Below are positions 3,088 to 62,539 of a stretch of 64,000 bases of DNA, piece after piece. Under the pieces are notes generated by a model. The model had not been told where the DNA came from. It ran no database searches and saw nothing but the letters and a program-made list of their open reading frames with translations. The stretch is taken from the IMG/VR virus record IMGVR_UViG_3300002054_000060. One strand, 5' to 3'. Both the position numbers and the translations under genes were made by a program. Numbering within the stretch: position 1 is the stretch's first letter; every line of letters starts with the position of its first letter. This DNA is from a virus.

Positions 3088-3099
3088 GTAAGCACTCAC
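3088..3099 (+). promoter_or_regulatory. 12-bp box (GTAAGCACTCAC)
   Basis: Overlaps TATAGT; 31 bp before ATG 3119. Confidence 0.8.
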
Positions 3100-3118
3100 T
3101 CACTACAGGAATTTCACC

Positions 3119-3508
3119 ATGAAGCTCATGACCGCGGAAATTGGAAAAGCGCTGCACGAGGCAGATGCAATGGTTCTTGCCACAGGCAAAACGCCAGACC
3201 CGATCGTTGTCAAATACTTCAACCCAATGGGTGCTGGGACGTGGCACATCGCCAGCGGCACGCCAATGGATGACCACGGCGACCCAACCACGCCAGACAA
3301 GGCGCTTGATTGGTGCCTGTACGGACTGTGTGACCTGGGGTTTGGCGCTGATTGCACAGAACTCGGCTACGTAATGCTCTCGGAGCTTGAGAACGTCGGC
3401 AAGTACCAGATACTGCCCATCGAGCGCGACATTCACTTTGAGGGGCTTATGTCAGAGCTGCTGGCTGATCTTGAGAGCCAGCGGGCCAGAGCAAGCGTGG
3501 CGCGATGA
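3119..3508 (+). CDS. DUF2958 family protein
   Basis: VKYFNPMGAGTW...YGLCDLGFG..ELGYVMLSEL...IERDIHF pattern typical of DUF2958. Confidence 0.75.
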   Translation: MKLMTAEIGKALHEADAMVLATGKTPDPIVVKYFNPMGAGTWHIASGTPMDDHGDPTTPDKALDWCLYGLCDLGFGADCTELGYVMLSELENVGKYQILPIERDIHFEGLMSELLADLESQRARASVAR

Positions 3509-3714
3509 GCATGGCGTACCCCGTCTGCAAAACATGCGGCGGCACTGACACGCTAGCCACTAACTCCACGGCACGCTGGCATGACAGTGGTGGCGCCGGT
3601 TACTTCGTCATCACGAGTGACCCGCACAACGAGATAGATCATTGCGACACCTGCGGTGAGAACCCATCAGTGGAGTGGCGAGACTATCCAGCCAAGGAGA
3701 CAAACAGTGGGTAG
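3505..3714 (+). CDS. small CxxC...CxxC zinc-finger-like protein
   Basis: CKTCG and CDTCG motifs; ATGA coupling. Confidence 0.65.
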   Translation: MSMAYPVCKTCGGTDTLATNSTARWHDSGGAGYFVITSDPHNEIDHCDTCGENPSVEWRDYPAKETNSG

Positions 3715-3988
3715 CTACCGCTGTATCGAAGAGCGCTACCTCGGGCGCGACAAGCTGTGGGTAACAATCAATAACGCTGTTAGCCCGCAAGAGGCTGCAC
3801 AAAGCTACTGCGAATTGTACTTGACCCACTTTGTCGGCAGCTCTGGCTTCAAGCGATCTCAAGTGATTATTGTTCAACCCATCGACAAGGCAGATCGCTA
3901 TCAGGCGACATTCACAATTGACGAGCTGAGAGGCTGGATGCTTGAGAGCTACAAACCCATTTCATCTGAATTAGGCAAAACCGCATGA
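3707..3988 (+). CDS. hypothetical protein, paralog family A (1 of 3)
   Basis: GTG start after AGGAG; motif YxC-x11-W-x8-PxxAAxxY. Confidence 0.65.
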   Translation: MGSYRCIEERYLGRDKLWVTINNAVSPQEAAQSYCELYLTHFVGSSGFKRSQVIIVQPIDKADRYQATFTIDELRGWMLESYKPISSELGKTA

Positions 3989-4236
3989 GTGATTTCTACT
4001 GCAAAGGGGTGTGGGGCCATGCGCAGCATGACGAGGGCTGGCTTCGATTCAAAGAGAGCTTGACGCCAGAAGAGGCCGCAGTGGCCTACGCCCAGTGGGA
4101 TTTGGAAGGCAGCGACATGGCCTATGTCGATGGCATGGGCGTGGCGGTAAAGCTCGGACTGGACGGCGAGGAGCAAGTGTTGAAGGTCAACGTCGCCGTT
4201 ACCTACGAATACAACTGCACGGCAGCAAAAATATGA
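3985..4236 (+). CDS. hypothetical protein, paralog family A (2 of 3)
   Basis: ATGA overlap; FYC...W...PEEAAVAY. Confidence 0.7.
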   Translation: MSDFYCKGVWGHAQHDEGWLRFKESLTPEEAAVAYAQWDLEGSDMAYVDGMGVAVKLGLDGEEQVLKVNVAVTYEYNCTAAKI

Positions 4237-4517
4237 GCAATAAAAAACACTACTACTGCATCAAGGCAAGCGATGCGGTGCTCGAGCGCGGCAAGTGGAT
4301 AGATATGGGTCCGTGTGATAACCCGATCACCGCCGCTGGGCGGTTTTGCAATGATCGGATACACCCCTTCAACGATATAGACCAGAGCTGCACGGTGCGC
4401 GTCAGAGAGGGGATCGATGGCCCGCAGTACGAGGTGGATCTCGAGGCCGAGATTGACGTGCAGTGGACCTGTTTCAGTTGCAACGTGGTGGAGGATGAAA
4501 ATGCCAAGCAGCCTTAG
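4233..4517 (+). CDS. hypothetical protein, paralog family A (3 of 3)
   Basis: Start moved to ATGA overlap at 4233; YYC...W...PITAAGRF. Confidence 0.7.
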   Translation: MSNKKHYYCIKASDAVLERGKWIDMGPCDNPITAAGRFCNDRIHPFNDIDQSCTVRVREGIDGPQYEVDLEAEIDVQWTCFSCNVVEDENAKQP

Positions 4518-5049
4518 ACTCGATGACCTTGCTGAGTTAGTGAAGCGAACAGTCTACAAAGAGCTGGAGCGGCAAGACAAAGAGAATCAATCACCTTATG
4601 TGTACATCAGAGGGGCGCATTTAAGCTCGCTGCTGGTTGATGGGAAGGTGAACATGAATCAGCTCGCCGAGGCGATCTTGAGCGCTCTGCCGGCGCCCAT
4701 TCGTGAACGCGCAGAGCGTGGCTTTTTTGACAGAGAGACAACAAGGTATGGCGGTTGGGTCCCGTGGCTTGACTCGGACGGTCAGGTGATTTGCTGGACT
4801 GACCCTGATGGGCGTACATTCAAGTGTGACAAGCATGGGTGGATAGACCCCAATGAACATCTGCCGCCACTCACAGACAGGGCAGAGTTTAGCGGCATCA
4901 TCACGTTGCTGGTGTCTTGCGACGAGGGAGTAGAAAGCGCGTCGGGTAACTTCACTCACAAGGGTTGGATCAGTGGGCTTGAGTGTCTGCCGCTCCAAGA
5001 GAGTGAAACCGTTGTGGGTTGGCAGCCATCGCCAGTAGATACAACCTGA
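4501..5049 (+). CDS. hypothetical protein
   Basis: ATG 4501 after GGAGG, in frame with track ORF 4417..5049. Confidence 0.65.
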   Translation: MPSSLRLDDLAELVKRTVYKELERQDKENQSPYVYIRGAHLSSLLVDGKVNMNQLAEAILSALPAPIRERAERGFFDRETTRYGGWVPWLDSDGQVICWTDPDGRTFKCDKHGWIDPNEHLPPLTDRAEFSGIITLLVSCDEGVESASGNFTHKGWISGLECLPLQESETVVGWQPSPVDTT

Positions 5050-5063
5050 GCCCAGCGCTTACA

Positions 5064-5075
5064 GTAACCACTCAC
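5064..5075 (+). promoter_or_regulatory. 12-bp box (GTAACCACTCAC)
   Basis: 36 bp before ATG 5100, with CACTACAGAGGAAA leader. Confidence 0.8.
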
Positions 5076-5099
5076 TTACGCACTACAGAGGAAACGACG

Positions 5100-5471
5100 A
5101 TGGCCCGGATACATTTCAAGCACGCTGATGCCAAGCGCATCTTTGACCTGGCGGTAGAACACAAGCAGGAAGTCTGTTTCGTCAAGGATGACGGCATCTA
5201 CTTGATGGTGCCCAACATGAAGGGCATTGACCCCGACGCCAATGACCACGGCATCAGCGTGGTCTACGCACACGGCGCTGACCCCAAGCAGGACGAGGAT
5301 TGTTGGGAGACTGCCCGGTTTCTCGCTGGCGGCGACGATTTCGGCGAGACTTTTGATGAAACCCTGGTTGCGAAGCTGCAAAAACAGATCGCAGATGATG
5401 CCCTTAAGTATTTCGTGGTTGATTTGAAGCCGGAAACTATGCAATTCGTCAGCAGCGATCGGCTTGTCTAA
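5100..5471 (+). CDS. DUF3085 family protein
   Basis: FVKDDGIYLM...VVYAHGADP...GGDDFGE motifs; start reset to ATG 5100 after AGAGGAAA. Confidence 0.75.
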   Translation: MARIHFKHADAKRIFDLAVEHKQEVCFVKDDGIYLMVPNMKGIDPDANDHGISVVYAHGADPKQDEDCWETARFLAGGDDFGETFDETLVAKLQKQIADDALKYFVVDLKPETMQFVSSDRLV

Positions 5472-5571
5472 ATTCCCCTGCAATGCGGCGGGGTACGGCT
5501 GGCTTTCCATGTACAGCAGCCCCGCTGCGCTGCCCTTTGTATCACTCACCTGACCTGGAGACACCGCACCG

Positions 5572-5913
5572 ATGAGAACCTCACCTGACAAGCCCTTGCC
5601 GAGTATGCCCGTGCCGGATAACCCCGTGCTTGAGCCGTACTCGATAGAGCCGTACACCGTGTTGCTGCTGTACCCGGATTACATGGCCTCAGATTTCGGC
5701 CACGAGACGTATTTGGCCTGGGTTGAAGCGCCTGACGCTGGAAAGGCAATACGAGTCGCGCAAGAAGAGGTCATGCAGAGCAGTGACAGCGAATCCGATA
5801 CGGAGCGCGACCCCGATGACTTTCATTGCCTAGCGTGCTTTAAGGGCCATCACAACGACTACAGCAGCGAGCAGAGCATAGCCACACCAGCCGGACTCCT
5901 GAGCGTACAGTAA
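5572..5913 (+). CDS. hypothetical phage protein
   Basis: YTVLLLYPDY...ETYLAWVEA pattern; start uncertain. Confidence 0.65.
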   Translation: MRTSPDKPLPSMPVPDNPVLEPYSIEPYTVLLLYPDYMASDFGHETYLAWVEAPDAGKAIRVAQEEVMQSSDSESDTERDPDDFHCLACFKGHHNDYSSEQSIATPAGLLSVQ

Positions 5914-5921
5914 TCACTCAC
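5910..5921 (+). promoter_or_regulatory. 12-bp box (GTAATCACTCAC)
   Basis: 35 bp before ATG 5945. Confidence 0.8.
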
Positions 5922-5944
5922 TTACATCACAGAGGAAAACAACG

Positions 5945-6316
5945 ATGGGCCTTGACCAAAACGCATTTGCACACAAGGGCGCACTGCCGCAGCCAACCGA
6001 CTTTGAGCCCAAACCGGAAGAAATATCTGAGCTTTTCTACTGGCGCAAACACGCTGACCTGGAGGGCTGGATGGAGAAGCTCTACCGGGAGAAAGGCGGC
6101 AAAGAAGAGGTGTTCAACGTCGCCACGGTCGAGCTGACCATGCAAGACATCGACCGGCTTGAGCGCGACGTGCTGGCAGATTCACTGCCGCACACGGAAG
6201 GGTTCTTCTTCGGAAAAAGCCACCCAGAGGACAAAGAGGCAACGCTGAAGTTCATCGGGCTAGCACGCGAGACGCTTAGAGGCGGCGACTCGGTGTTCTA
6301 CACAAGCTGGTGGTAA
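5945..6316 (+). CDS. hypothetical phage protein, MGLD...WRK family (paralog of 12628..12987)
   Basis: MGLDQNAF...FYWRKHADLEGWMEKLY...VFYTSWW. Confidence 0.8.
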   Translation: MGLDQNAFAHKGALPQPTDFEPKPEEISELFYWRKHADLEGWMEKLYREKGGKEEVFNVATVELTMQDIDRLERDVLADSLPHTEGFFFGKSHPEDKEATLKFIGLARETLRGGDSVFYTSWW

Positions 6317-6380
6317 CACGCTGAAAACGGGACTGTGGGCTGGTGATCACGCTAACGCCACCCGCAGTCCTGCGCTTATA

Positions 6381-6392
6381 GTAAGCACTCAC
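6381..6392 (+). promoter_or_regulatory. 12-bp box (GTAAGCACTCAC)
   Basis: 35 bp before ATG 6416; preceded by GGACTGTGGG/CCCGCAGTCC hairpin. Confidence 0.8.
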
Positions 6393-6415
6393 TCACGCAC
6401 TAGAGGAAATTCACC

Positions 6416-6721
6416 ATGAAGCCCGAACATCTATTGGCGCGCCTAGCTTGCGATGTGATCGAACAGGTCGATTCTCTCGGGTACAGGCTCGACACGCATC
6501 GCCAGCAGATCGAGGGGCTCATTGAGCTTGTTGAAATGGTGGCCGATGCCGTCTGGGACCAGCAGGGCGAGCGCTTCTGTGTCGATATGAACCAGAACGG
6601 CACTTGTATGCGCTACTTCGACCCGATCAATTCTCACGTCTACGATCCAGCGCAGTACAGCCACCGGCTGTATTCCTACTTTCACTGGCAGTTGACAGCA
6701 GCAGAGGTAGAAGCTGCATAA
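6416..6721 (+). CDS. hypothetical protein
   Basis: Leader plus AGAGGA SD; 101 aa. Confidence 0.75.
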   Translation: MKPEHLLARLACDVIEQVDSLGYRLDTHRQQIEGLIELVEMVADAVWDQQGERFCVDMNQNGTCMRYFDPINSHVYDPAQYSHRLYSYFHWQLTAAEVEAA

Positions 6722-6733
6722 GCAAGGAGTCAA

Positions 6734-6909
6734 ATGCCCCTTGGTTCACCAACTACTATTGTCACGATGACTGCGCGGTACAACCCGGCGTGGCGTGGCA
6801 AGACGAATGGGACTGCATGTGTAATGACCGCTGCCCAGCATGCAACCACGAGATAGAGCCCTACCAATCCACTGAGCGCCCCTCAGAAGAGCCAACAAAC
6901 ACAAAGTAA
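6734..6909 (+). pseudogene. small Cys-rich protein with apparent frameshift near its start
   Basis: SD AAGGAG then ATG 6734 is out of frame with the WFTNYYCH..C...CNDRCPAC body by one base at a CCCC run. Confidence 0.45.
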
Positions 6910-6937
6910 GTACATGCTAACTTCAACAGGCAAAACA

Positions 6938-7219
6938 ATGAACTCACCAAACCTACAACTGGTCGTTGACAACAACGGCTTCGAGCACTTGTCTCGCATG
7001 GAGCAAGACGCGGTGATCTTCCAAGCCATAGAAAAAAGCGGGGTAGCTGTAGCGATGCTCGATGACCTTGGCCCCGATGAAATCATCCATGCGCACAAGA
7101 TGCTTGACCGGGGTCAGCTACGATTGATTAGCTATGCCGCCAAAAACGATGCGGTAGCCATTGATGATGCGTGGCGTGACCATGACAAGCGCGGAAAACT
7201 GTACTTGGCTGTTAACTGA
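6938..7219 (+). CDS. hypothetical protein
   Basis: Track ORF 6914..7219; likely start ATG 6938. Confidence 0.7.
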   Translation: MNSPNLQLVVDNNGFEHLSRMEQDAVIFQAIEKSGVAVAMLDDLGPDEIIHAHKMLDRGQLRLISYAAKNDAVAIDDAWRDHDKRGKLYLAVN

Positions 7220-7233
7220 ATAGAAAACCCTTT

Positions 7234-7614
7234 ATGCCAACGAAGCTGATCAAACACGGCGTTATGGAGATGTGGCGCACCCGTGCATCATCTGACGAGG
7301 ACATTTTGCCCGCCAGGCAAAAGAACGGTGTCCAGTACGCCGGCCACAGCTACACGCTGACAGCGGACCTGGGCCGTGTTGACATTGAGTTCACCAGCGG
7401 AATCTGGCGGCAAAACAGCATCACGGTGACGTTCATCCATGATGCTATCAGCAGGTTGTGGCACCCCGTCGTTGAGATGCACACAGCAGCGGGCAGCATT
7501 GCCCTGATGGACATCGCAGAGGAGCTGCCGGAAGTGGTGGAGTTTGCCCTTGAGGAGTTCGACCAGGTAAAGAACCGGTTTGTATTGCCACGGCAACAGC
7601 CGCGCACTGCTTAA
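7234..7614 (+). CDS. hypothetical protein
   Basis: 126-aa ORF in the co-directional array. Confidence 0.7.
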   Translation: MPTKLIKHGVMEMWRTRASSDEDILPARQKNGVQYAGHSYTLTADLGRVDIEFTSGIWRQNSITVTFIHDAISRLWHPVVEMHTAAGSIALMDIAEELPEVVEFALEEFDQVKNRFVLPRQQPRTA

Positions 7615-7639
7615 CAACCCCCTCAGTATTGGCTTCATA

Positions 7640-7651
7640 GTAAACACTCAC
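7640..7651 (+). promoter_or_regulatory. 12-bp box (GTAAACACTCAC)
   Basis: 37 bp before ATG 7677. Confidence 0.75.
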
Positions 7652-7676
7652 TTACACACTACACATGGAAAAAATA

Positions 7677-7943
7677 ATGAAGCACTGGATACCGGTGGGC
7701 GATGCGATGCCACACCCGTTCAAACTCTGCCACGTCACCATAGCCAACCGAATTGGTGAGCGCTGGGTCGAGCGGCACCACTACATTCTGCGCGACAAGG
7801 ACTGGCGTAAAACCTATGACCCAAGTGTGCGGGCCAACGTTAATACCCCTGAAAATGACGGGGATATGATCGTGAGCTGGCGCTACATGGAAGAGGTGGG
7901 CATCGACGTGGATAGCCCACTGCCTGCGGAGATTGCGGCATGA
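7677..7943 (+). CDS. hypothetical protein
   Basis: MKHWIPVGDAMP... after the leader. Confidence 0.7.
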   Translation: MKHWIPVGDAMPHPFKLCHVTIANRIGERWVERHHYILRDKDWRKTYDPSVRANVNTPENDGDMIVSWRYMEEVGIDVDSPLPAEIAA

Positions 7944-8200
7944 CCTTCTGGCCCTCGCACTTGTCGTGGCCTGAAACCATCGTGGTGGGCTTGCTGGCCT
8001 TGCTTTGGCTGTCAATCATCTTGCGGCTACTGCTCACACCACAAGCACGGCAGTTTCTGCTGGGTGTCGAGGTGACAGTGGAAGGCAGGACGCGAGATGG
8101 GCAAATTCGCCGTCAAAAATTTCAGGTACGGGGAGCAAAAGCATTACGGCTGGCCCGCTCTGCAAAGCGACAAGGTATTTACTCTGATGGCCGCTCGTAA
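7940..8200 (+). CDS. small membrane protein
   Basis: ATGA overlap; TM segment IVVGLLALLWLSIILRLLL. Confidence 0.65.
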   Translation: MTFWPSHLSWPETIVVGLLALLWLSIILRLLLTPQARQFLLGVEVTVEGRTRDGQIRRQKFQVRGAKALRLARSAKRQGIYSDGRS

Positions 8201-8435
8201 GCGCAAGGGGATCCCAATAAAGGGCGTCGATGGCGAGCCGCTCGATGACCTGGTTACGCGGGAGTTTCGGAACGCCGCACGAGAAATCTCCCAAAAATTC
8301 ATGCACCACATCGTTGTGCACGATAGATCCCTGCAGGAGACGCTCACAGCCGTTTACATGCACGGCTTTATACACGGGCACCAGTTGACCCGTGAAAATG
8401 ACTCAGCGGTCACTGGGGCTGACGACGCGAACTGA
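8187..8435 (+). CDS. hypothetical protein
   Basis: Track ORF 8097..8435; start moved to ATG 8187 to reduce the overlap. Confidence 0.6.
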   Translation: MAARKRKGIPIKGVDGEPLDDLVTREFRNAAREISQKFMHHIVVHDRSLQETLTAVYMHGFIHGHQLTRENDSAVTGADDAN

Positions 8436-8460
8436 CAAAGCCCTTGTTGTGGCACATACA

Positions 8461-8472
8461 GTAACTAATCAC
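8461..8472 (+). promoter_or_regulatory. degenerate 12-bp box (GTAACTAATCAC)
   Basis: Followed by the TTACACACTACAGAGGAAA leader; 35 bp before ATG 8496. Confidence 0.7.
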
Positions 8473-8495
8473 TTACACACTACAGAGGAAACGCA

Positions 8496-9089
8496 ATGGA
8501 CATTCAGGGCTTTATCGACAGCGCTCCGAAAGCAGTCCGCTTTACAGATCAACCGCCACTGAGCGTGGAGCAATTTCAAGCAATTCAGTCACCGGATGAT
8601 TTGGTGGCAATTGCCAAAGAGCTAATTCTCGTGCCGGGAAACATCGCCTGCATTGAAAACGCCAGCGCTGGCTCAGAGGAAACAAGGGCGGTGCTTATCA
8701 ACTTTGCCGTGAACTATATATCCTTCCAAAGCGCTGGCGTCAGGGGTGAGGACGCGGATTACAACGTGAGTCGGGAATGGCTCAGAGTCTTGAGGATGGC
8801 ATTTGAGGGAATCAAGGGTAGTGGGCACACCATGTCCATTGATGTAGAAGGCGACTACAACTTTCATGGATCGCCGTACAACATCAAAGTCAAATCGGCA
8901 GAAGAGCACGTACTGTGGGGAATGTGGTTCGAGGCTCTACAAACAGAGTTCTCTGGAGAGCCCTTTCCAAACAGCAGAGACTGGGATGATTATCTTGCCG
9001 ATTGTGACGCAGATGAGAAGGCTCAATTGTTGGCGGCCAGAGATCGCTTTTTGAACATGCTAAGGGAAGAGGATCGGCTGGCGTTCTAA
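8496..9089 (+). CDS. hypothetical protein, MDIQGFIDS family (1 of 2)
   Basis: N-terminus shared with the next gene. Confidence 0.8.
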   Translation: MDIQGFIDSAPKAVRFTDQPPLSVEQFQAIQSPDDLVAIAKELILVPGNIACIENASAGSEETRAVLINFAVNYISFQSAGVRGEDADYNVSREWLRVLRMAFEGIKGSGHTMSIDVEGDYNFHGSPYNIKVKSAEEHVLWGMWFEALQTEFSGEPFPNSRDWDDYLADCDADEKAQLLAARDRFLNMLREEDRLAF

Positions 9090-9127
9090 AATCCAGCGCC
9101 AACACTAACCGCACACGGACGTGCATA

Positions 9128-9139
9128 GTAACCACTCAC
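9128..9139 (+). promoter_or_regulatory. 12-bp box (GTAACCACTCAC)
   Basis: 29 bp before ATG 9157; preceded by CCGCACACGGACGTGCATA. Confidence 0.8.
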
Positions 9140-9156
9140 TCAATAGAGGAAACGTA

Positions 9157-9756
9157 ATGGACATTCAAGGCTTTATCGACAGCATTCCCAAAGATGAGAG
9201 CCTTACGTGCAACCACCCGTCACTGACGGTCGAGCAAATGCAAGCCATAAATTCGCCCGACGACTTGATACTGATTGCCAACACCTTTTGTCTGCATGAA
9301 GATGACCAGATCTTGAAAAAATACGAGCCCGAGTACCAGTTATTTCTTCGCATCAACCTCGCTCTTAATTATCTGTCAGAAGTTCGTGAGGGCGATCTGA
9401 CTGCCCCCTACATAAGCCACACCAGCGTGGGTACTCCCGCATGGCGTCGTGTTGCCAAGATTGCGTTCGACGCTATCGCGGATTTGCCCTTTGTGATGTC
9501 CACGGACGTATCCGGGCAGCATGGCTTTTGTGGCTCGCCGTGGGATGAGCCAGTTCGCACAGTGGACGATTACGTGAGAGAGGTGCTGTGGCAACGCTCT
9601 CAGGAAAACGAGCCCTGTTTTTGTGGCCCGTGGGATTCTGAGTGGAGCGGTCAGCTTGCCCACGCTGATGATGAGGAACGCAAGGCAATACTCGATAGCG
9701 AGCAAACTTATTTGGCCGCGTTGGCTGCGCAAGAGGCCATCGCACAATCAGCTTGA
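9157..9756 (+). CDS. hypothetical protein, MDIQGFIDS family (2 of 2)
   Basis: Start reset to ATG 9157 after AGAGGAAA. Confidence 0.8.
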   Translation: MDIQGFIDSIPKDESLTCNHPSLTVEQMQAINSPDDLILIANTFCLHEDDQILKKYEPEYQLFLRINLALNYLSEVREGDLTAPYISHTSVGTPAWRRVAKIAFDAIADLPFVMSTDVSGQHGFCGSPWDEPVRTVDDYVREVLWQRSQENEPCFCGPWDSEWSGQLAHADDEERKAILDSEQTYLAALAAQEAIAQSA

Positions 9757-9781
9757 CACTTACCGCACACGGACGTGCATA

Positions 9782-9793
9782 GTAATCACTCAC
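9782..9793 (+). promoter_or_regulatory. 12-bp box (GTAATCACTCAC)
   Basis: 31 bp before ATG 9813; same upstream 19-mer as the 9128 copy. Confidence 0.8.
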
Positions 9794-9812
9794 TCACATT
9801 AGGAGCAAAACA

Positions 9813-10196
9813 ATGTCACACGGCGATATTTACATTGGCGGGGCTCGCTCGCTCAAGATCACGGACGGCACCATGATCGAGCAGTGGCTCACCGACGTGC
9901 TGTATTTCGGCATGTACAAGAACTCGGGCTACCCCCACTACGACGACGGCAGCTTCGACATAACGCTGTCGATGCACCACGCACGGGAACTTACCAAAGA
10001 CTTGCGCAGCCACCAGCAATTCGAGCAATCCCGATTCGCGCTCAACGCGACAAAGGAACGACGCGAACGGTGGGCTGCACTCAACGCTGATGCGGCATGG
10101 CTGATCGAGAAGATCGAGCTTTGCAACAGGACCGGCAAGCCCGTGCGCTACGTCGGTTTCGTGGGCGCAGAGGAGCTTGAGGAGGACGCGGCATGA
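9813..10196 (+). CDS. hypothetical protein
   Basis: AGGAG SD; 127 aa. Confidence 0.75.
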   Translation: MSHGDIYIGGARSLKITDGTMIEQWLTDVLYFGMYKNSGYPHYDDGSFDITLSMHHARELTKDLRSHQQFEQSRFALNATKERRERWAALNADAAWLIEKIELCNRTGKPVRYVGFVGAEELEEDAA

Positions 10197-10471
10197 GCAC
10201 GTTGAAACCCACAATGACAAGGCTCAACTGCATCGGCGTCAACAGCAACGACTTCCCGGATGAGTTCATCGAGTCGCTGCGCGGCACTGCAGAAGAGGTG
10301 ATGGAGCGCACGCATCTACTGGTACGGGTCATGGTGGATGACCACCCGAACGTGGTCATCAACACCGACGATGCTGCGCACCACCTGGAGAAAGAGCACC
10401 CCTACGTGGCGGAGTGGTTCCGCAGCATCGAAAGGACGGTGCAGTACGTCTTTATCTCGATTGATTTCTAA
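10193..10471 (+). CDS. hypothetical protein
   Basis: ATGA overlap, GAGGAGG SD. Confidence 0.75.
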   Translation: MSTLKPTMTRLNCIGVNSNDFPDEFIESLRGTAEEVMERTHLLVRVMVDDHPNVVINTDDAAHHLEKEHPYVAEWFRSIERTVQYVFISIDF

Positions 10472-10475
10472 GGCG

Positions 10476-10700
10476 ATGACTCACTATCTCATATCGGTGC
10501 TTGCGCGCATCGTTTTGCTGCCGGCTTACTCGAGAGAGGGGCTCTGGACTATCACTCAGGCGGAATCCAAGGACGTTTACAGACCTTGGTTCTATGTCGG
10601 CAGCGTCAGCATTGAACGGCGTGGCATCGAAGTCACCGGCTTCGTCGTGATCCTATGGCGCCGCAAGGTGTCAATCGGCTGGATTGGGCGCATCGAATAA
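10476..10700 (+). CDS. hypothetical protein
   Basis: ATG 10476 just after the previous stop. Confidence 0.5.
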   Translation: MTHYLISVLARIVLLPAYSREGLWTITQAESKDVYRPWFYVGSVSIERRGIEVTGFVVILWRRKVSIGWIGRIE

Positions 10701-10730
10701 CACAACACCACCCGCGCCCCAACGCATACA

Positions 10731-10742
10731 GTAAGCACTCAC
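10731..10742 (+). promoter_or_regulatory. 12-bp box (GTAAGCACTCAC)
   Basis: 37 bp before ATG 10768. Confidence 0.8.
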
Positions 10743-10767
10743 TCACACACTATGGATCAACAAGCAA

Positions 10768-11229
10768 ATGACGGTCAAACTCACAGACGCAGAGCGCAAG
10801 GTACTTGATCGCGCCGCACGCATCATGGATAAAGCGGTGCGCGAAGCGCCACAGGAATACGTAACCAACCCAGACGCGGTGCGTGAATACTTCAAGACCC
10901 GGCTTTTTGGCAAAGAAGCAGAAGGGTTCTACATGATGATGCTGAACAACAGGCACGCTGTCATTGATATGCAACTGATGTTCCACGGCACAATAGACAG
11001 CAGTGCGGTGTACCCACGCGAGATAGTCAAGCGTGTGCTCGAATGCAACGCAGCGGCAGTCATATTTGCGCACAATCACCCAAGCGGCGTGACCATTGCG
11101 TCCGATGCGGATATCAGGATCACGCGCAAGCTCACCGATGCTCTGGCGTTGATTGACGTGCGCGTGCTGGACCACCTAATCGCTGGCAACGGCACCATCA
11201 CTTCAATGGCAGAGCAGGGGCTAATGTAA
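10768..11229 (+). CDS. radC: RadC-family JAB domain protein
   Basis: AVYPREIVKR...AHNHPSG...SDADIRITRKL..AL.LIDVRVLDHLI signature. Confidence 0.95.
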   Translation: MTVKLTDAERKVLDRAARIMDKAVREAPQEYVTNPDAVREYFKTRLFGKEAEGFYMMMLNNRHAVIDMQLMFHGTIDSSAVYPREIVKRVLECNAAAVIFAHNHPSGVTIASDADIRITRKLTDALALIDVRVLDHLIAGNGTITSMAEQGLM

Positions 11230-11537
11230 TGCAACAGGCAGCTACAGCACGCAAAACTAGAGGGCGCGTCTCCGCGGGACCCATCCCGACACATTGGGTG
11301 ATCACCGTGGACGAACAGCCCAAGAGCGCGCAGGCGTTCGGTGACTGGTCAAGCTCGCCGATCGCTATTTTCGATGACGAGCAGATAGCGGAGCGTTACC
11401 TGTATCGGATGCGCTCAACGATGAAAGCCTGGATACACGAATGGTCCGGGCAATGCCCCAAGAACTACCGGTACAAGCTAAGCAAAGTACCTATGTCAGT
11501 CGGGACGTGTCGAGCCACAGGGGGGCGTTTTTTGTAA
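11229..11537 (+). CDS. hypothetical protein
   Basis: TAATG coupling to radC. Confidence 0.6.
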   Translation: MQQAATARKTRGRVSAGPIPTHWVITVDEQPKSAQAFGDWSSSPIAIFDDEQIAERYLYRMRSTMKAWIHEWSGQCPKNYRYKLSKVPMSVGTCRATGGRFL

Positions 11538-11562
11538 CAACGCCCTTGGTGTGGCTCGTATA

Positions 11563-11574
11563 GTAACCACTCAC
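11563..11574 (+). promoter_or_regulatory. 12-bp box (GTAACCACTCAC)
   Basis: 36 bp before ATG 11599. Confidence 0.8.
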
Positions 11575-11598
11575 TTACACACTACAGAGGAAATTCAC

Positions 11599-12105
11599 AT
11601 GTCGGCATGGATGTGCAACAACAGCACGATCTCCGCGGTTGCTTATGCGATTGTTGAGGAGAGGCTCCACACAGCCGGTGGTTTTGTAGCCGTCAGCGAC
11701 GTACATGAGTCACTGGTGTTCGAGAATATCCGGTCACTTAAGCATCGCTACGGCGACAGAGCTGACGGCATGATCGAAGAGTACGATCACGTCACTGCGG
11801 CAGAAGCGCTACCAGCGCTTGAGCCACACGATATTCGGTCACTCGCCAATTGCTTGTACTACCAGAGCTGTGAACACCCGGAGTACGAGAGCAGCCCCGG
11901 GTGCGAAGTCACCAAGGCGCTGATTGACCTCATTGAAAAGCGCTTTGCTGACAAGGGCATTGACAAGGACCGGATCCCTGATGGCCCTTGGGGGTTGACT
12001 GAATTGACTGCGGTATCAAAGCGCAGCTTTTTTGACCTGACAAAGCCAGAGAACCGGGAAACCAAAGCTGCGCTCAAGTCGATCGGCTTGACGCTCGCTT
12101 ACTAG
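11599..12105 (+). CDS. hypothetical phage protein
   Basis: MSAWMCNN...ENIRSLKHRY...CLYYQSCEHPEY; start after AGAGGAAA. Confidence 0.8.
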   Translation: MSAWMCNNSTISAVAYAIVEERLHTAGGFVAVSDVHESLVFENIRSLKHRYGDRADGMIEEYDHVTAAEALPALEPHDIRSLANCLYYQSCEHPEYESSPGCEVTKALIDLIEKRFADKGIDKDRIPDGPWGLTELTAVSKRSFFDLTKPENRETKAALKSIGLTLAY

Positions 12106-12182
12106 CAGTACCCCACTATCCCCACGTTGCTACCGACAGCAGCGTGGGGCTTACAGCCACCCACACAACAAAGGGAAATATC

Positions 12183-12593
12183 ATGCCAGACAACAGCACA
12201 GTTACTCACGGGGCTTTGCGTGAGCAGATTCAAAAGCATCTTGATGTCACCGTCAACGACATCATCACGCAGTACGGTCACGACGACCTTGAGGACGATG
12301 AGGAGCGCGAACCGCTAATACGCAGAGTCAAGCACGAAGAGCTAATCGTGCAGGGCATGATAGACCTGCTGGGCAGCATCAATGGCGACACCTCGTTCGA
12401 TATTGGACTGGTCGCAATGGGTGAAAGTGTCGAGAAAGAGCTGCACTTCAAAGGCGTTGTGTTGATTAACTCCGGCGACCAGTTCGGACGCGCCCTTGTT
12501 GAGCACCTGCTGGTGGTGCGCCTGAAAGCAATGGAGCTGGAAATAAAAGAGATGTTAAGGCTCATTCCTGATGATTTCAGTGACCGAGATTGA
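12183..12593 (+). CDS. hypothetical protein
   Basis: Start reset to ATG 12183 after AAGGGAAA. Confidence 0.7.
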   Translation: MPDNSTVTHGALREQIQKHLDVTVNDIITQYGHDDLEDDEEREPLIRRVKHEELIVQGMIDLLGSINGDTSFDIGLVAMGESVEKELHFKGVVLINSGDQFGRALVEHLLVVRLKAMELEIKEMLRLIPDDFSDRD

Positions 12594-12627
12594 CGCCCAC
12601 CCACACACTAACGGGAGACACACTCAC

Positions 12628-12987
12628 ATGGGACTGGACGCATTTGTACACACGCGAAATGAGCCGATCGAAGATGATGTTGATTTTGAAGCCATGAAGG
12701 GCGACGAACAATTCTTTCACTGGAAGAACCACTACGCCTTGGATTCGTGGTTGGTTAACCTCTACAACAAGCGTTGCGGCACTGGCAGTTGGAACGGCGA
12801 TCTGTTGCAGCTACGCCTGGGTGACATCAATCAGCTTGAAAGGGCGCTCGATTTCGGTGATCTAGCCAAGATCCCGGAATTTGGCGAATGGGCTGCCGAG
12901 TATGCAGATCAAGACAGGGAGTTCATCAAACTGGCACGCGATGCGATCAAGTCGGGTCTTTCGCTCTACTACTTCAACTGGTATTGA
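12628..12987 (+). CDS. hypothetical phage protein, MGLD...W family (paralog of 5945..6316)
   Basis: MGLDAF...FFHWKNHYALDSWLVNLY...LYYFNWY. Confidence 0.75.
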   Translation: MGLDAFVHTRNEPIEDDVDFEAMKGDEQFFHWKNHYALDSWLVNLYNKRCGTGSWNGDLLQLRLGDINQLERALDFGDLAKIPEFGEWAAEYADQDREFIKLARDAIKSGLSLYYFNWY

Positions 12988-12995
12988 GGCCGACC

Positions 12996-13400
12996 ATGAG
13001 CCATATCAAACTGTACGCCACCACGCGGTCGCTCATAGAGGGCCAGGTGGTTGAGCCAAGCGCCGCTGACAAGCTAGTGTTGGAGTTGCCCTACGACATC
13101 ATGCTGCACTTTACAGCGGTGGCTTTTCACATAGAACAGTTCACTGAGAGCGAATCACTGCCGGAAGCTCACGCAATACGGCTATGCGTCGCTCGCGCCT
13201 TCATTGATTTTATGGAAGAGCGCATGAACGCGGCCAGTGACAAAGCCTTGGAGATATTTTCCGATGACGAGAAGTTCTCGAAAAAGGCGATCACCGAGCA
13301 AATTGATTTCATCAAGCGCGGCGTCAAGCTCGAAAGCTCAATGAAGTCCACGCCGGTGCTGGGCTTGTGCCTGTACCTGGACGTAGCAGCGCCTGATTAA
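12996..13400 (+). CDS. hypothetical protein
   Basis: ATG 12996 after GAGG. Confidence 0.7.
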   Translation: MSHIKLYATTRSLIEGQVVEPSAADKLVLELPYDIMLHFTAVAFHIEQFTESESLPEAHAIRLCVARAFIDFMEERMNAASDKALEIFSDDEKFSKKAITEQIDFIKRGVKLESSMKSTPVLGLCLYLDVAAPD

Positions 13401-13427
13401 AACCAACAACACTGACCGGAGAAAACC

Positions 13428-13895
13428 ATGAGCGAAGCAGAAGATCGATTCACGGCAGAGAACCTGGAGACACTTGCTGACTTCATTGAAAAGCACGCAC
13501 CGCAAGAGCAGATCGACATGGAAGCCTACGTGTCACGCGAGGGAGAAGTTCTTGATTCAGACGTGGTCCCGAGCAATCTGCATTGTCTGGTCGATATAGG
13601 CGACACAACGCCGCCGACACTGGGGGACATACACGAGTGCGGCACTTGCTTCTGCGCTGTTGGCTGGGAGGCTGTGCGCTCTCCAGAAGCGGCTGCCAAG
13701 TGCAATAACTGGGAAGATTTGCAAGTAATGCAGTTCCCGGGCACTGAAGAGGTAGTGCTGCACGACAGTAAGCGCGGTATGGCTTTGTCCGGGGACGACT
13801 ACTGCTTCGGTGGCGAGCAAAGCAGAGACAAGGCAGACGTAATTAGCCGACTACGCGAGGTGGCCCAAGTGCTGCGGGGCAGATTGCCAGCGTAA
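13428..13895 (+). CDS. hypothetical protein, family B (NLE.LADFIE) 1 of 3
   Basis: ENLETLADFIE; CGTCFCAVGWEA; YCFGGEQS. Confidence 0.8.
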   Translation: MSEAEDRFTAENLETLADFIEKHAPQEQIDMEAYVSREGEVLDSDVVPSNLHCLVDIGDTTPPTLGDIHECGTCFCAVGWEAVRSPEAAAKCNNWEDLQVMQFPGTEEVVLHDSKRGMALSGDDYCFGGEQSRDKADVISRLREVAQVLRGRLPA

Positions 13896-13931
13896 CAATT
13901 CATTACCCACACTTACACACCGGAGAAACCC

Positions 13932-14195
13932 ATGAACACAAGAGAGCGAGGAGCACTAACCGCGCAGAATTTGATCGACCTGGCGGATTTCATCGAGCTG
14001 CAGTTTCAGAACCTGGATGGGTTCCACATGCGCAACGAGTATGAGGACGGCGATCTTACAGACGCCTACCACTACTGCTTCGGTGGCGCTCAGACAAGCA
14101 CCAAGTCGGCAGTCATCGGGCGCTTGCGCAGAACCGCTGATTTGATTAAGGAAGAGCTCGAGACAGAGCGTGCCGCGGAGCTTGCTGCTAGCTAG
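13932..14195 (+). CDS. hypothetical protein, family B 2 of 3 (central domain missing)
   Basis: QNLIDLADFIE and YCFGGAQT present; CGT.FCA core absent. Confidence 0.7.
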   Translation: MNTRERGALTAQNLIDLADFIELQFQNLDGFHMRNEYEDGDLTDAYHYCFGGAQTSTKSAVIGRLRRTADLIKEELETERAAELAAS

Positions 14196-14226
14196 CACCA
14201 ACACTGACCGCATCCTGTGGCACATA

Positions 14227-14238
14227 GTAACCACTCAC
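14227..14238 (+). promoter_or_regulatory. 12-bp box (GTAACCACTCAC)
   Basis: 35 bp before ATG 14262. Confidence 0.8.
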
Positions 14239-14261
14239 TCACTTGTTGCAGGATATTTGGC

Positions 14262-14642
14262 ATGGCTACCCCACGACGGCATTCCGCAGTGTTCTACTTT
14301 GAAGGAGCAGAGCAGGACGGTGCCCACCCCACGCTTCACACAATGAGCCACAACGATCCGGTGGCTTACTTTGAGTGGTTGCGTGCGCTGAACGCATACG
14401 TGACAGACAAGAGCGACACGCCAGAGTCCAGGGTCAAGGGACTCATTCGCAAGATCAGAAAGGACGGTGACTGGTTCGTGGGCGAGTCCGGTGACTCCTA
14501 CGCTGACCAGTCACTCGCCATCGTGAAAGGGCGTGCCAAACCCCATGCACGGTTCGTCTACTGCTTGCACGAGAACGGGGACGTTTCCGTGTGCCACGTT
14601 CGCAAGCAAGCGCGGCATCGCGCAATGGTTGGCGAGCAGTAA
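14262..14642 (+). CDS. hypothetical protein
   Basis: Start reset to ATG 14262 after CAGGA. Confidence 0.7.
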   Translation: MATPRRHSAVFYFEGAEQDGAHPTLHTMSHNDPVAYFEWLRALNAYVTDKSDTPESRVKGLIRKIRKDGDWFVGESGDSYADQSLAIVKGRAKPHARFVYCLHENGDVSVCHVRKQARHRAMVGEQ

Positions 14643-14671
14643 TCACCCACATACTTACCGGAGAAAACACC

Positions 14672-15148
14672 ATGCAAGACTCACTGATGCTGAAAACGGC
14701 AGATAACCTGGAGTTGCTAGCCGACTTCATAGAAGAGCACGCTGAGCCGGAATCGATTGACATGAGTTGGTACGTCACAGGCTATTACGGCAGCTCGATG
14801 CCAACTCAGCCTCTTCAAACTCGTGAACTCATCGAAAAGCTTACCAAGGTGCAGCTAGACAAAAAAGCACCCATTACTAGCGAGCACATGAATAATTGCG
14901 GTACATCCTTCTGCGCACTCGGGTGGGAAGCGCTGCGTGCGCCCAAGGTCGCAAGTTGGTACAGCGATTGGGTAAAGTTCCGGCAGCAGCAGTTCCCTGC
15001 GCTGGACGAGCTGGATATCAACGACGAGTTTGCCGTTGACTACTGTTTTGGCGCCGAGCAAAGCAGTAACAAAGAAGATGTGCTGGCTCGGTTGCGCCAC
15101 GCTGCCGGGGTGGTGCGCGGCAACGTTGGAATGGAAGCAACGCCCTGA
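14672..15148 (+). CDS. hypothetical protein, family B 3 of 3
   Basis: DNLELLADFIE; CGTSFCALGWEA; YCFGAEQS. Confidence 0.8.
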   Translation: MQDSLMLKTADNLELLADFIEEHAEPESIDMSWYVTGYYGSSMPTQPLQTRELIEKLTKVQLDKKAPITSEHMNNCGTSFCALGWEALRAPKVASWYSDWVKFRQQQFPALDELDINDEFAVDYCFGAEQSSNKEDVLARLRHAAGVVRGNVGMEATP

Positions 15149-15162
15149 CACCAGCTCTTATA

Positions 15163-15174
15163 GTAAACACTCAC
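15163..15174 (+). promoter_or_regulatory. 12-bp box (GTAAACACTCAC)
   Basis: 34 bp before ATG 15197. Confidence 0.8.
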
Positions 15175-15196
15175 TCGCATTACACAGGAAAATCAA

Positions 15197-15418
15197 ATGG
15201 CTAGGGTCAGCAACGAAAGAATACGAGCGGTCTTTCTGGAGAACATCACCAGCACCACTGAATCGGTGAGTTGGCAGGATATTGTCGTATCAATGAAAGC
15301 AGCAGGATTCTCCGGTAATTGGTTGCGAGTCCGCGGCGTGCTGCAAGGACTCAAAGATGAGGGCATCGTCAGGCGCATCGACAGCATTCACGTTGAAGAG
15401 TTCGTACTTACCGAGTAA
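15197..15418 (+). CDS. small protein, possible winged helix
   Basis: Leader plus 73-aa ORF; VRGVLQGLKDEGIV-like helix. Confidence 0.65.
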   Translation: MARVSNERIRAVFLENITSTTESVSWQDIVVSMKAAGFSGNWLRVRGVLQGLKDEGIVRRIDSIHVEEFVLTE

Positions 15419-15457
15419 AGAAACAGAACCAGCACCACCCGCACATGGAAGTGCATA

Positions 15458-15469
15458 GTAACAACTCAC
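15458..15469 (+). promoter_or_regulatory. 12-bp box (GTAACAACTCAC)
   Basis: 36 bp before ATG 15494; preceded by CCGCACATGGAAGTGCATA. Confidence 0.75.
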
Positions 15470-15493
15470 TCGCACTACAAAGGAATCCAAGAC

Positions 15494-15808
15494 ATGAAAA
15501 AGGCCAAGATCATCAAAGCGATCGCCGCAGACTTAAAGCATTACGCGAGAGTTCACATCAACTACGAGGTAACGCTATCGCAGGGCGAACCGCACTCTTA
15601 CGAGTGGCTTGAAAACATGCAGGATGTAGCCAAGTACCGGGACATCCTGCTGGGACGCGCAGAGGGCATTTGGACGGTGCTCTACGCTTTGGACGCGCAG
15701 GCCATTGGGCTTGACGGACGCATTCTGAGGGGTCCGGACGATTACGTGCATTACGTGATCGCCCAGTGCGTCAAACCGGTTGAGGCAAACAGAGCAGCAA
15801 GGGCGTAA
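15494..15808 (+). CDS. hypothetical protein
   Basis: Leader, AAGGA SD. Confidence 0.75.
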   Translation: MKKAKIIKAIAADLKHYARVHINYEVTLSQGEPHSYEWLENMQDVAKYRDILLGRAEGIWTVLYALDAQAIGLDGRILRGPDDYVHYVIAQCVKPVEANRAARA

Positions 15809-15833
15809 CTCTTACCTGAGTCCAGCTCTTATA

Positions 15834-15845
15834 GTAACCACTCAC
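15834..15845 (+). promoter_or_regulatory. 12-bp box (GTAACCACTCAC)
   Basis: 38 bp before ATG 15872. Confidence 0.8.
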
Positions 15846-17112: not shown

Positions 17113-17120
17113 GCACTTAC
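17109..17120. promoter_or_regulatory. 12-bp box, symmetric form GTAAGCACTTAC
   Basis: Closes the early array at the edge of the non-coding region. Confidence 0.75.
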
Positions 17121-17846: not shown

Positions 17847-17859
17847 TATCAACAACTTA
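17847..17859 (+). promoter_or_regulatory. IHF consensus site
   Basis: TATCAACAACTTA matches WATCAANNNNTTR. Confidence 0.55.
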
Positions 17860-48857: not shown

Positions 48858-48869
48858 GTAAGTGCTAAC
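48858..48869. promoter_or_regulatory. 12-bp box (GTAAGTGCTAAC) upstream of tail tube
   Basis: 11/12 match; intergenic. Confidence 0.7.
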
Positions 48870-62073: not shown

Positions 62074-62522
62074 TGAAACTCTACTATCTCAACTTCAAAG
62101 ATGGAGAGCTGCTTAGTCACGGCCCTGACAAAATTCAGGGCGATGGTTTTGTTACCAAGACTTTTCGTGGCAAGCAATCCTATGAAAAGGCGTTAGCTAT
62201 CTACAAACCGCCTGATAATTCTCGTGATCTCATTGACGCGGCAATTGCTAGCGCCAACATTGTTGACCCTTACTTGCTGGCAATAAAAACGCTGGAGGCC
62301 AAGCGTTACCTGAGTGCCCTGCAACGCAGCGAGCCAATAGATGTCGATGAATATCTCATCCTGATCGACGAGGCCAACAGCCAGGGTATAGAGCCGCAGC
62401 TTTTGGCTGAGTCGATCATGAATAGATTTACCGATAGTAAGCTGAGCGAACTGCGACGCCGACGCACCAAGACACGCACGCAGGCTGAAATAGAGCAGGT
62501 AAGGTCCAGAAGCGACTCATAG
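62073..62522 (+). CDS. hypothetical, possible tail fibre assembly protein
   Basis: TGATG coupling to the J-like gene. Confidence 0.55.
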   Translation: MKLYYLNFKDGELLSHGPDKIQGDGFVTKTFRGKQSYEKALAIYKPPDNSRDLIDAAIASANIVDPYLLAIKTLEAKRYLSALQRSEPIDVDEYLILIDEANSQGIEPQLLAESIMNRFTDSKLSELRRRRTKTRTQAEIEQVRSRSDS

Positions 62523-62527
62523 CATAA

Positions 62528-62539
62528 GTAACCGCTTAC
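62528..62539. promoter_or_regulatory. degenerate 12-bp box (GTAACCGCTTAC)
   Basis: Intergenic; 10/12 match. Confidence 0.5.

Follow-up and report, generated by a model that had tools for sequence, protein, structure and literature searches.

A dispersed dyad box at the transcription units of SSU5-like siphoviruses and its candidate winged-helix reader

Results

Abundance and placement of the box

The 64,000-nucleotide stretch analyzed here (the window) corresponds to bases 23608-87607 of the 103,961-bp virus record IMGVR_UViG_3300002054_000060 (hereafter G000), the genome of a siphovirus encoding Pol III alpha, DnaB, primase, RecA, SbcCD, CobS/CobT, a TerS-like protein, TerL, portal, capsid and a long tail module. 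Copies of a short sequence, the box, whose symmetric form reads GTAAG-NN-CTTAC, are dispersed along this genome, and a preliminary description had proposed them as the operators of a network in which one dimeric regulator controls most transcription units. The box was analyzed in G000 and in three relatives, G005 (109.6 kb, 30-56% protein identity), G009 (102.7 kb, complete) and the cultured Salmonella phage SSU5 (NC_018843). Taken together, the results support, at the level of sequence, a dispersed and selected dyad of protein-binding type that marks most transcription units; to this extent the proposal held, binding itself being a prediction.

Exact matches to GTAANCACTYAC numbered 20 in the window, compared to 0.08 expected from dinucleotide-preserving shuffles, none of which contained more than one, and 24 in the whole 103,961-bp record, where the reversed control pattern was absent. 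A 20-nt weight matrix applied to G000 at 12 bits or more returned 48 strand-specific matches, or about 43 distinct sites, against 0–6 in shuffles (about 2 expected), and only 5 of these matches fell in coding DNA. With a looser arm pattern, 42 out of 61 sites in G000 were intergenic, while non-coding DNA amounts to only 19% (binomial p = 4e-17), and the same bias was observed in G005 (p = 1.5e-14), G009 (p = 8e-13) and SSU5 (p = 3e-8). The box is thus far above shuffled controls and concentrated in intergenic DNA. In an unbiased search for dyads, GTAAG-N2-CTTAC was the only dispersed one in G000 and the top dispersed one in all four genomes; one site of G000, at window coordinate -1438, forms a perfect 24-bp palindrome. 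Every position given in the preliminary description carried a copy or a near-copy (1–3 mismatches), and all of these are intergenic as it had claimed, a statement that is limited to the copies it listed because an exact copy absent from that list, of doubtful function, sits at 27945-27956 (minus strand) within the open reading frame (ORF) 27399-28475.

Early cassettes

Fifteen forward copies (3088-15834, plus 21478) are part of a ~70-bp cassette that recurs before small plus-strand genes. Some 17 such paralogous early cassettes were counted in the window, carrying a one-sided variant of the box, GTAAnCACTCAC, which extends over both a TAnAGT hexamer and the predicted transcription start site. 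The cassette reads, in order, AACACc, a 17-nt spacer, TAyAGT over box positions 1–2, AAnCACTCAC, TyAC, a CA-rich leader, the Shine-Dalgarno region ACTACAGAGGAAA and the ATG. With the hexamer and the position of the ATG in parentheses, the plus-strand copies are GTAAGCACTCAC at 3088-3099 (TATAGT, overlapping box positions 1–2; 3119), 6381-6392 (TATAGT; 6416) and 10731-10742 (TACAGT; 10768); GTAACCACTCAC at 5064-5075 (TACAGT; 5100), 9128-9139 (CATAGT; 9157), 11563-11574 (TATAGT; 11599), 14227-14238 (CATAGT; 14262) and 15834-15845 (TATAGT; 15872); GTAATCACTCAC at 5910-5921 (TACAGT; 5945) and 9782-9793 (CATAGT; 9813); and GTAAACACTCAC at 7640-7651 (CATAGT; 7677) and 15163-15174 (TATAGT; 15197). 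The degenerate box GTAACTAATCAC at 8461-8472 (ATG 8496) deviates from GTAAGCACTCAC at 3 positions and GTAACAACTCAC at 15458-15469 (CATAGT; ATG 15494), which has one mismatch to the pattern, at 1–2, both within a full cassette. A further cassette-type box, GTAAGCACTCAC, is located at 21478-21489 (ATG 21512). The distance from box start to ATG was 29–38 nt for the 15 forward copies, as previously stated, which leaves 17–26 nt between box end and ATG.

All early copies point toward their gene (10 co-directional versus 0 among unambiguous cases). Their position 5 is free while the mirror position 8 is invariant, and their right arm reads CTCAC; hence they are not dyads, and neither the symmetry nor the orientation independence attributed to the box as a whole applies to them. 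By contrast, the reported overlap with TAnAGT and the absence of any consensus -35 were both confirmed: a sigma-70 consensus scan did not call the early cassettes, in which no TTGACA-like -35 was found and a conserved AACACc stands 17 nt upstream instead. Since that scan showed no enrichment either, canonical sigma-70 promoters were discarded. So were T7-type promoters: despite the resemblance of the early copies to ACTCACTATAGG, neither a PF00940 polymerase nor a polymerase-like large ORF was found, and the spacing of the two conserved blocks varies by 0–10 nt. The cassette spacers hold small hairpins (stems of 3–5 bp, differing in sequence), which may merely mirror cassette subfamilies.

Two boxes have the opposite orientation (minus strand) to the plus-strand genes that they precede. 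The one at 20399-20410 lies, on the plus strand, directly upstream of the hexamer TATGGA and a cassette-type leader (ATG 20446), and the one at 20942-20953 (ATG 20989) is its paralogue, 93% identical over 57 nt and likewise upstream of TATGGA. Between genes 20446-20853 and 20989-21306, a bidirectional terminator-like hairpin with T-runs on both strands, CCCCCACTCACCTGGGGG, occupies 20860-20900; any transcription from the minus-strand box at 20942 would run into it and yield a transcript of at most about 75 nt.

Dyad copies

Outside the early cassettes the copies are true dyads with right arm CTTAC, at 17109, 26143, 26714, 31463, 31935, 34659, 41772, 45447, 48858, 62528 and others beyond the window. 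For these the symmetry previously described stands, as does orientation independence (3 versus 2 in G000, the remainder ambiguous, hence no bias). The form GTAAGCACTTAC is found at 17109-17120 (plus strand), where it closes the early array and borders a 3.3-kb non-coding tract; at 41772-41783 (plus strand), between the TerL stop codon and the portal start, with TAGTTT 1 nt after it; and, as read on the minus strand, at 26714-26725, in a divergent region with gene starts at 26682 (minus) and 26766 (plus). The box GTAATCACTTAC at 26143-26154 (plus strand) lies between minus-strand genes, with TAGTAT 1 nt past its left end. Six copies have one mismatch to the pattern: GTAAGCACATAC at 31463-31474 (minus strand), upstream of minus-strand genes; GTAAGCGCTCAC at 31935-31946, at the 3' end of the helicase gene; the dyad at 34659-34670, flanked by the divergently oriented helicase gene (ATG 34621, minus) and ParB operon (ATG 34727, plus); the copy at 45447-45458 (plus strand), which follows the stop codon of the major capsid gene and precedes its terminator hairpin; the dyad at 48858-48869, between head/tail genes, which reads GTTAGCACTTAC on the minus strand; and GTAACCGCTTAC at 62528-62539, after the gene block of the 1846-residue tail protein.

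An action of the box in RNA, as a leader or 3'-untranslated-region element affecting processing, stability or translation, would agree with the tight distance to start codons (13–38 nt), the CA-rich leaders and the copies placed right before terminator hairpins. It is at odds with the dyad symmetry, the use of both strands and the absence of a preferred orientation beyond the early cassettes, and no Rfam match was found. Arrays of the box in other phages (see below) lie in non-coding DNA and face either way with respect to neighbouring genes. In addition, the predicted early starts fall inside the box, so that the RNA would contain only part of it. Such a role is regarded as hardly credible.

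The tract at 17121-20397, bordered by boxes on either side, is A/C-rich on the plus strand (AT skew +0.43, GC skew -0.22). Among its many repeat families are 103-nt repeats set 310 bp apart, three CCATTCCGCAGC words spaced at 46 bp and the iteron-like TCCGTAAGGCTAAGG. It is probably an origin or partition region.

Conservation of the box in relatives

An exact-pattern scan of IMG/VR retrieved the extended box from many contigs. G005 contained 13 exact copies spread genome-wide, and 24 with at most one mismatch (some palindromic sites being counted on both strands); their orientation, 7 versus 2, gave p = 0.18. In G009, about 22 clean intergenic sites of the form TAA-GT(A/C)AG-NN-CT(T/G)AC-TTA were found, and 30 intergenic matches by arm pattern. 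The G009 site is an 18-bp palindrome with a free centre, mirrored flanks and a position 3 (A15/C14) that mirrors position 10 (T14/G14), and its outer geometry, AAGT-N8-ACTT, was intergenic in 14 out of 14 occurrences. SSU5 was examined as an independent prediction: the GTAAG-NN-CTTAC core was present at 18 intergenic sites, embedded in palindromes of 26–32 bp such as AAAATGATAg-GTAAGTAyTTAC-cTATCATTTT. Across the relatives, the clean palindrome of the box thus measures 18–32 bp.

The box was also found at orthologous junctions. The order capsid stop codon, box, terminator is kept in G000, G005 and G009; the junction TerL stop, box, portal start is kept in G000 and SSU5 (GTAAGTGCTTAC at SSU5 position 2035); and the junction between the helicase and the ParB operon holds a box in G000, G005, G009 and SSU5. 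In more distant relatives the capsid site holds another dyad, AAGTCAT-TT-ATGACTT, which fits the expectation of co-evolution between a site and its reader. A genome-wide network of this one genome is too narrow a term, since the box is conserved across the SSU5-like group. In the literature searched, no description of the box or of regulatory motifs of the SSU5 group was found, subscription-journal work on the SSU5 supercluster being outside the scope.

A second dispersed dyad, AAACAA-N-TTGTTT, was observed in SSU5, intergenic in 14 out of 14 cases (e.g. 81, 30449, 42729 and 80773-94525). In most cases the start codon of a small gene follows 12–40 nt after it and a GATAAT hexamer precedes it by about 13 nt, and it looks like a separate, immunity-type operator set of the SSU5 early cassettes.

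Promoter context

A TAnnnT hexamer 0–2 nt past the box end was found at 10 of 42 intergenic sites in G000, 17 of 32 in G005 and 14 of 30 in G009, over a background of 5–7%. In G009, G005, SSU5 and part of the G000 sites the box is placed 0–1 nt upstream of the hexamer, and in the first three genomes genes begin 20–70 nt beyond it. No -35 at proper distance was found at the box-adjacent hexamers of any of the four genomes. Because the box ends 0–1 nt before the -10-like hexamer, its centre would be near -20. The previous argument that dyad symmetry and orientation independence favour an operator over a promoter element is not supported in view of this fixed spacing to TAnnnT without a -35, a layout that is, by analogy, the architecture of the activator-dependent late promoters of phage P1 rather than that of stoperators.

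Box and hexamer could also be a promoter-specificity element read by RNA polymerase with a phage sigma-like or appropriator subunit, or with a conserved host factor. Consistent with this, the two form a single unit of fixed geometry, the early copies are strictly co-oriented, and an identical box of 13–17 nt occurs in other types of phage genome that share no detectable regulator. However, Pfam screening of about 120 G000 proteins produced no sigma-family or RNA polymerase match, no large ORF was polymerase-like, and a six-frame search with the PF00940 hidden Markov model (HMM) found nothing in G000 and four box-bearing contigs, the control genomes of that search being likewise without the family. 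The dyad and its mirror-symmetric variants indicate a dimer, arrays repeating every 18 bp cannot be promoters, the hosts differ too much to have an unusual specificity in common, and Caulobacter phage RW and MW202545, relatives of the phages that carry the arrays, lack the box. An element of this kind is considered unlikely.

Host and life style

An identical copy of G000 was located at ~245-349 kb of a 386-kb metagenome scaffold (ERZ23497615 scaffold_5). A tyrosine integrase lies just past the left end of the record, adjoining a 148-residue XRE-type helix-turn-helix (HTH) gene, and the bacterial chromosome beyond contains aroA-cmk-rpsA-ihfB-lapB-pyrF, with an S1 protein 81% identical to that of a Granulosicoccaceae isolate. 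Based on this identical copy, the integrase and the host genes that follow, G000 is, as judged from sequence, a temperate phage integrated as a prophage in a marine, Granulosicoccaceae-like gammaproteobacterium; integration by an SSU5-like phage in place of a plasmid life is notable. The IMG/VR record is cut inside the prophage, with the integrase, an 80-residue ORF and a DUF222/HNH protein beyond its left end (scaffold ~339-361 kb). Public runs containing this sequence were DNA only, from a single algae-metagenome study, with no RNA runs among them.

No box was found in 7.6 kb of host flank. This box-free flank and the wide difference between hosts, Salmonella for SSU5 and a Granulosicoccaceae-like marine gammaproteobacterium for G000, favour a phage-encoded reader.

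Five genes of G000 bear inteins, all with Hint/intein-splicing domains and most with LAGLIDADG, and encode the SF2 helicase, an ABC/GNAT protein, TerL, RecA and DnaB. Three are within the window, at 31943-34621 (minus strand, SF2 helicase), 36557-38803 (plus) and 39787-41718 (plus, TerL), and two beyond it, at genome positions 10798-12654 and 100084-102843.

Candidate readers

Three binders had been put forward in the preliminary description, a Crp-like protein (36048), a winged helix-turn-helix (wHTH) protein (38800) and a ribbon-helix-helix (RHH)-like protein (31522). The first and the last are unique to G000, without a homologue in G005, which has an identical box, in G009 or in the other loci examined, and both were discarded as readers. 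The second, a 96-residue protein (38800-39090, plus strand), is encoded directly upstream of the TerS-like (39087-39842) and TerL (39787-41718) genes, and homologues of 40–49% identity occur in G005, G009, SSU5 and further SSU5-like phages, always directly before TerS-like/TerL. Late activators, RinA among them, are typically encoded upstream of terS (PMC3152322). Almost no variation is seen in the recognition helix of the wHTH protein, YKTTK.SMQFS[L/I]RAL, or in its basic wing, as is the case for the GTAAG/CTTAC arms.

An AlphaFold2 model of the protein (pLDDT 80) shows a winged helix (H1-H2-H3-wing) followed by a C-terminal helix, as in winged-helix folds with a C-terminal dimerisation helix. 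Its top Foldseek matches were AF1382, LmrR, Rv3488, a PadR-operator complex and MarR proteins (E 2e-4 to 4e-3, TMq 0.55–0.71), so that the closest solved structures belong to dimeric inverted-repeat regulators of the PadR/MarR type and to the viral F-93 protein. Pfam matches were below the gathering thresholds (HTH_34, LexA_DNA_bind and HTH_27 at 12–15 bits, compared to cut-offs of 22–27), and the homologues scored 18.7–22.6 bits against PadR, under the cut-off of 27. We infer that this wHTH protein is the most likely reader of the box.

The XRE-type HTH protein (genome 378-824, minus strand) was considered and rejected, because its similarity runs opposite to that of the box: the recognition helices differ in G000, G005 and G009, and the G000 protein is closer to that of G009, whose box is different, than to that of G005, whose box is identical. 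It is more likely a CI-type repressor of the lysogeny module. Upstream of its gene, at genome positions 825-910, three direct GTTAC words spaced by ~10–11 bp (AGTTACAATGAGTTACTAATTGTTAC) stand beside a TACAAT hexamer and may be operators of such a repressor. No homologues of Lpa or C1 were detected by phmmer at E ≤ 10, the search for C1 covering all ORFs of G000, G005 and G009.

Two proteins with ParB N-terminal domains (34727-36051, plus strand), encoded by the first genes of the operon in which the wHTH and terminase genes come last, are alternative conserved DNA-binding candidates. Boxes could then be parS/OB-like loading sites of these KorB-like proteins, acting in partition-linked or long-range silencing. 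RK2 KorB, a ParB-family global regulator with dispersed palindromic operators, is a precedent; the ParB pair accompanies the box in four genomes, a box is always found at the promoter of their operon, and the tandem arrays resemble centromere repeats. Nevertheless, Pfam and PHROG recognize only the N-terminal ParB/Srx domain in these proteins, and no HTH; SSU5 has a separate ParA locus elsewhere, a fixed spacing to -10 hexamers is unexpected for loading sites, and this copy of the phage, being integrated, needs no partition system. This role for the box is held to be very unlikely.

Box arrays in other phages

In at least two other groups of uncultured phages, an identical box of 13–17 nt (AGTAAGCACTCACTyAC) forms a single array of 3–6 direct copies with an 18–55-bp period beside packaging genes, in non-coding DNA and in either orientation relative to those genes. 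Tandem arrangement speaks for a protein-binding site rather than a promoter core. In the available sequence, the only protein detectably shared with G000 is a related large terminase, in one group, and HMMs of 70 ORF clusters from box-bearing loci matched only terminase and intein parts in G000, G005 and G009. The box was absent from Caulobacter phage RW and MW202545, which are annotated relatives of the array phages, and GenBank phages contained no box arrays, merely chance 24-nt matches. Flanking GP88-family genes were uninformative as a guide to a reader near the arrays. The arrays might represent cross-talk, in which a second phage or satellite-like element senses the regulator of an SSU5-like prophage to time its packaging genes, or decoys that titrate it; both ideas are speculative and rather improbable, though if correct they would hint at regulatory cross-talk among unrelated phages.

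On ten IMG/VR contigs the arrays are interleaved with palindromes, e.g. TGCACCAA-N2-3-TGGTGCA (NtrC-type-like) and TTGTTGCA..TGCAACAA. ORF cluster 8 of these phages is a 330-residue protein encoded between the small and large terminase genes, which weakly matches the intein/homing-endonuclease parts of the G000 helicase and ABC/GNAT protein (HMM E = 1e-6 and 2e-5) and may be a free-standing homing endonuclease. Two unrelated tandem repeats, from Microbacterium and from a Chloroflexota metagenome-assembled genome, emerged when genome contigs were scanned for tandem boxes. The Chloroflexota case (DAIMXP010000003.1, 66% GC) is a 23-bp repeat, GTGCCAC-GTAAGCACTCAC-TAAT, with an exact 12-mer and dispersed near-copies within 2 kb, and may be due to chance or to an unrelated element.

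Discussion

The reading that we prefer is that the box is the core of a dyad site, ideally TA[A/G]-GTAAG-NN-CTTAC-[C/T]TA, which would be bound by one phage-encoded, probably dimeric transcription factor, likely the wHTH protein, both factor and site being conserved across SSU5-like siphoviruses. At most replication, structural and lysis units, where the box adjoins a -10-like hexamer in promoters devoid of a -35, the bound factor would replace recognition of a -35 and switch the unit on, in the manner of Lpa at the -22 inverted repeat of P1. In the early cassettes, which are probably a derived, one-sided and repressing use of the site, the same factor on GTAAnCACTCAC, over TAnAGT and the predicted start site, would block RNA polymerase. 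A single protein could in this way turn early genes off and middle and late genes on. We assign this reading, which is derived from sequence comparisons, a probability of roughly 0.45. One dimeric regulator for most units, as originally suggested, remains the simplest interpretation and the dyads support it in outline; who reads the box, and with which sign, are predictions.

Several observations weigh against this reading. The box takes two positions relative to the -10-like hexamer, upstream and adjacent or overlapping the predicted start, which a repressor would tolerate more easily than an activator. Some sites of SSU5, G005 and a further genome, G004, are only 13–17 nt before the ATG, abutting the Shine-Dalgarno, and there the start must fall in or upstream of the box. 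The -10-like flanks are palindromic and may be part of a protein site rather than true -10 elements, and the box between capsid stop codon and terminator is hard to explain as a promoter. Regarding the reader, the wHTH protein is co-conserved with the box but shows no co-variation with it, and in conservation it is equalled by the ParB pair and by the TerS-like protein; its gene is itself in a box-preceded operon, so that an activator would require basal expression; and no homologue was found on the incomplete contigs of the array phages, which have an identical box.

Some of these points would be accommodated by a pure repressor network, in which the box is the operator of a prophage-maintenance or lytic-shutoff repressor that occludes the -10 and start region or acts as a roadblock, in the style of C1, L5 or RK2 KorA; this was the model of the preliminary description. 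The phage is temperate, as indicated by the integrase and XRE-type HTH gene near its left end and the 386-kb host scaffold; the box overlaps or touches core-promoter hexamers in variable register; sites between stop codon and terminator fit a roadblock; proteins with PadR/MarR-like folds are mostly repressors; and the tandem arrays elsewhere resemble multi-operator regions. On the other hand, no -35 accompanies the box in four genomes, including that of a phage of Salmonella, a host whose promoter rules are well known, and promoters without a -35 should be weak in the absence of an activator. The fixed 0–1-nt spacing between box and hexamer is needless for a repressor, the separate AAACAA-N-TTGTTT dyad of SSU5 already looks like an immunity-operator set, the XRE-type recognition helix does not track the box, and a C1 homologue is lacking. 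A network of repression only is accordingly doubtful, though it is the alternative that we take most seriously.

SSU5-like phages and phage-plasmids are widespread in Enterobacteriaceae, including plasmid-prophages of Klebsiella and E. coli, and no description of their transcriptional programme was found in the literature searched. If dual control by a single factor is correct, the box and the small wHTH protein constitute a testable regulatory model for the SSU5-like group, with SSU5_130 as the candidate master regulator in SSU5, an experimentally tractable phage; it predicts the promoters of most replication, structural and lysis units and suggests a shutoff of early genes.

Among known systems, RK2 KorA/KorB are similar in that a mobile replicon carries dispersed palindromic operators of 12–13 bp, located at or close to -10 regions, together with genes for ParB-family proteins. 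Here, by contrast, the replicon is a phage and the promoters have no -35; homology to KorA/KorB was not seen, no dedicated search having been made. C1 operators and L5 stoperators share with the box the presence of one short site in many intergenic copies genome-wide, which would allow control by a single protein. Stoperators are asymmetric and co-oriented with transcription, and so are the early-cassette copies of G000. In L5 they are read by the immunity repressor, of the gp71 family; the XRE-type HTH protein next to the integrase does not co-vary with the box. The general site described here differs in being a dyad without orientation bias and with fixed spacing to -10-like hexamers lacking a -35. 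An asymmetric site of ~13 bp, as in L5, is represented only by the early-cassette variant, and a single orientation does not extend to the other copies of G000 or to G005; nor does the dyad, without a -35, correspond to a 17-bp asymmetric operator over -35/-10 sigma-70 promoters, as for P1 C1.

The predicted fold of the candidate reader recalls PadR/MarR proteins (LmrR, B. subtilis PadR, PDB 5X11), which are small homodimeric regulators of inverted repeats. The layout of the PadR operator resembles the 4-N8-4 geometry AAGT-N8-ACTT. Most of those proteins respond to ligands and repress one or a few operons of the cell; they are not genome-wide regulators of a phage.

The closest parallel is with P1, in which 11 late promoters each contain a 9-bp inverted repeat that binds Lpa (PMC10695390), and whose record annotates the '-22 regions' AAGTTACTT and ATGTGACTT. 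A -10 with an inverted repeat near -22 and no -35 is found in G009, G005, SSU5 and some G000 sites, and not in the early cassettes. Both cases concern a temperate phage of ~100 kb with a dozen or more dispersed promoters, in which a -10 and an inverted repeat near -20 replace the -35, and one small phage-encoded factor whose gene adjoins packaging genes, a candidate in the present case. They differ in that the repeat described here, GTAAG-NN-CTTAC, spans 12–18 bp and abuts the hexamer, compared to 9 bp in P1; in that a variant of the box also covers the predicted start sites of early cassettes; and in the candidate reader, a PadR/MarR-like winged helix. As there is no homologue of Lpa or C1, the likeness to P1 is one of function and not of family, and the SSU5-like phages would provide, if this reading is true, a second, unrelated solution to the problem that P1 solves with Lpa.

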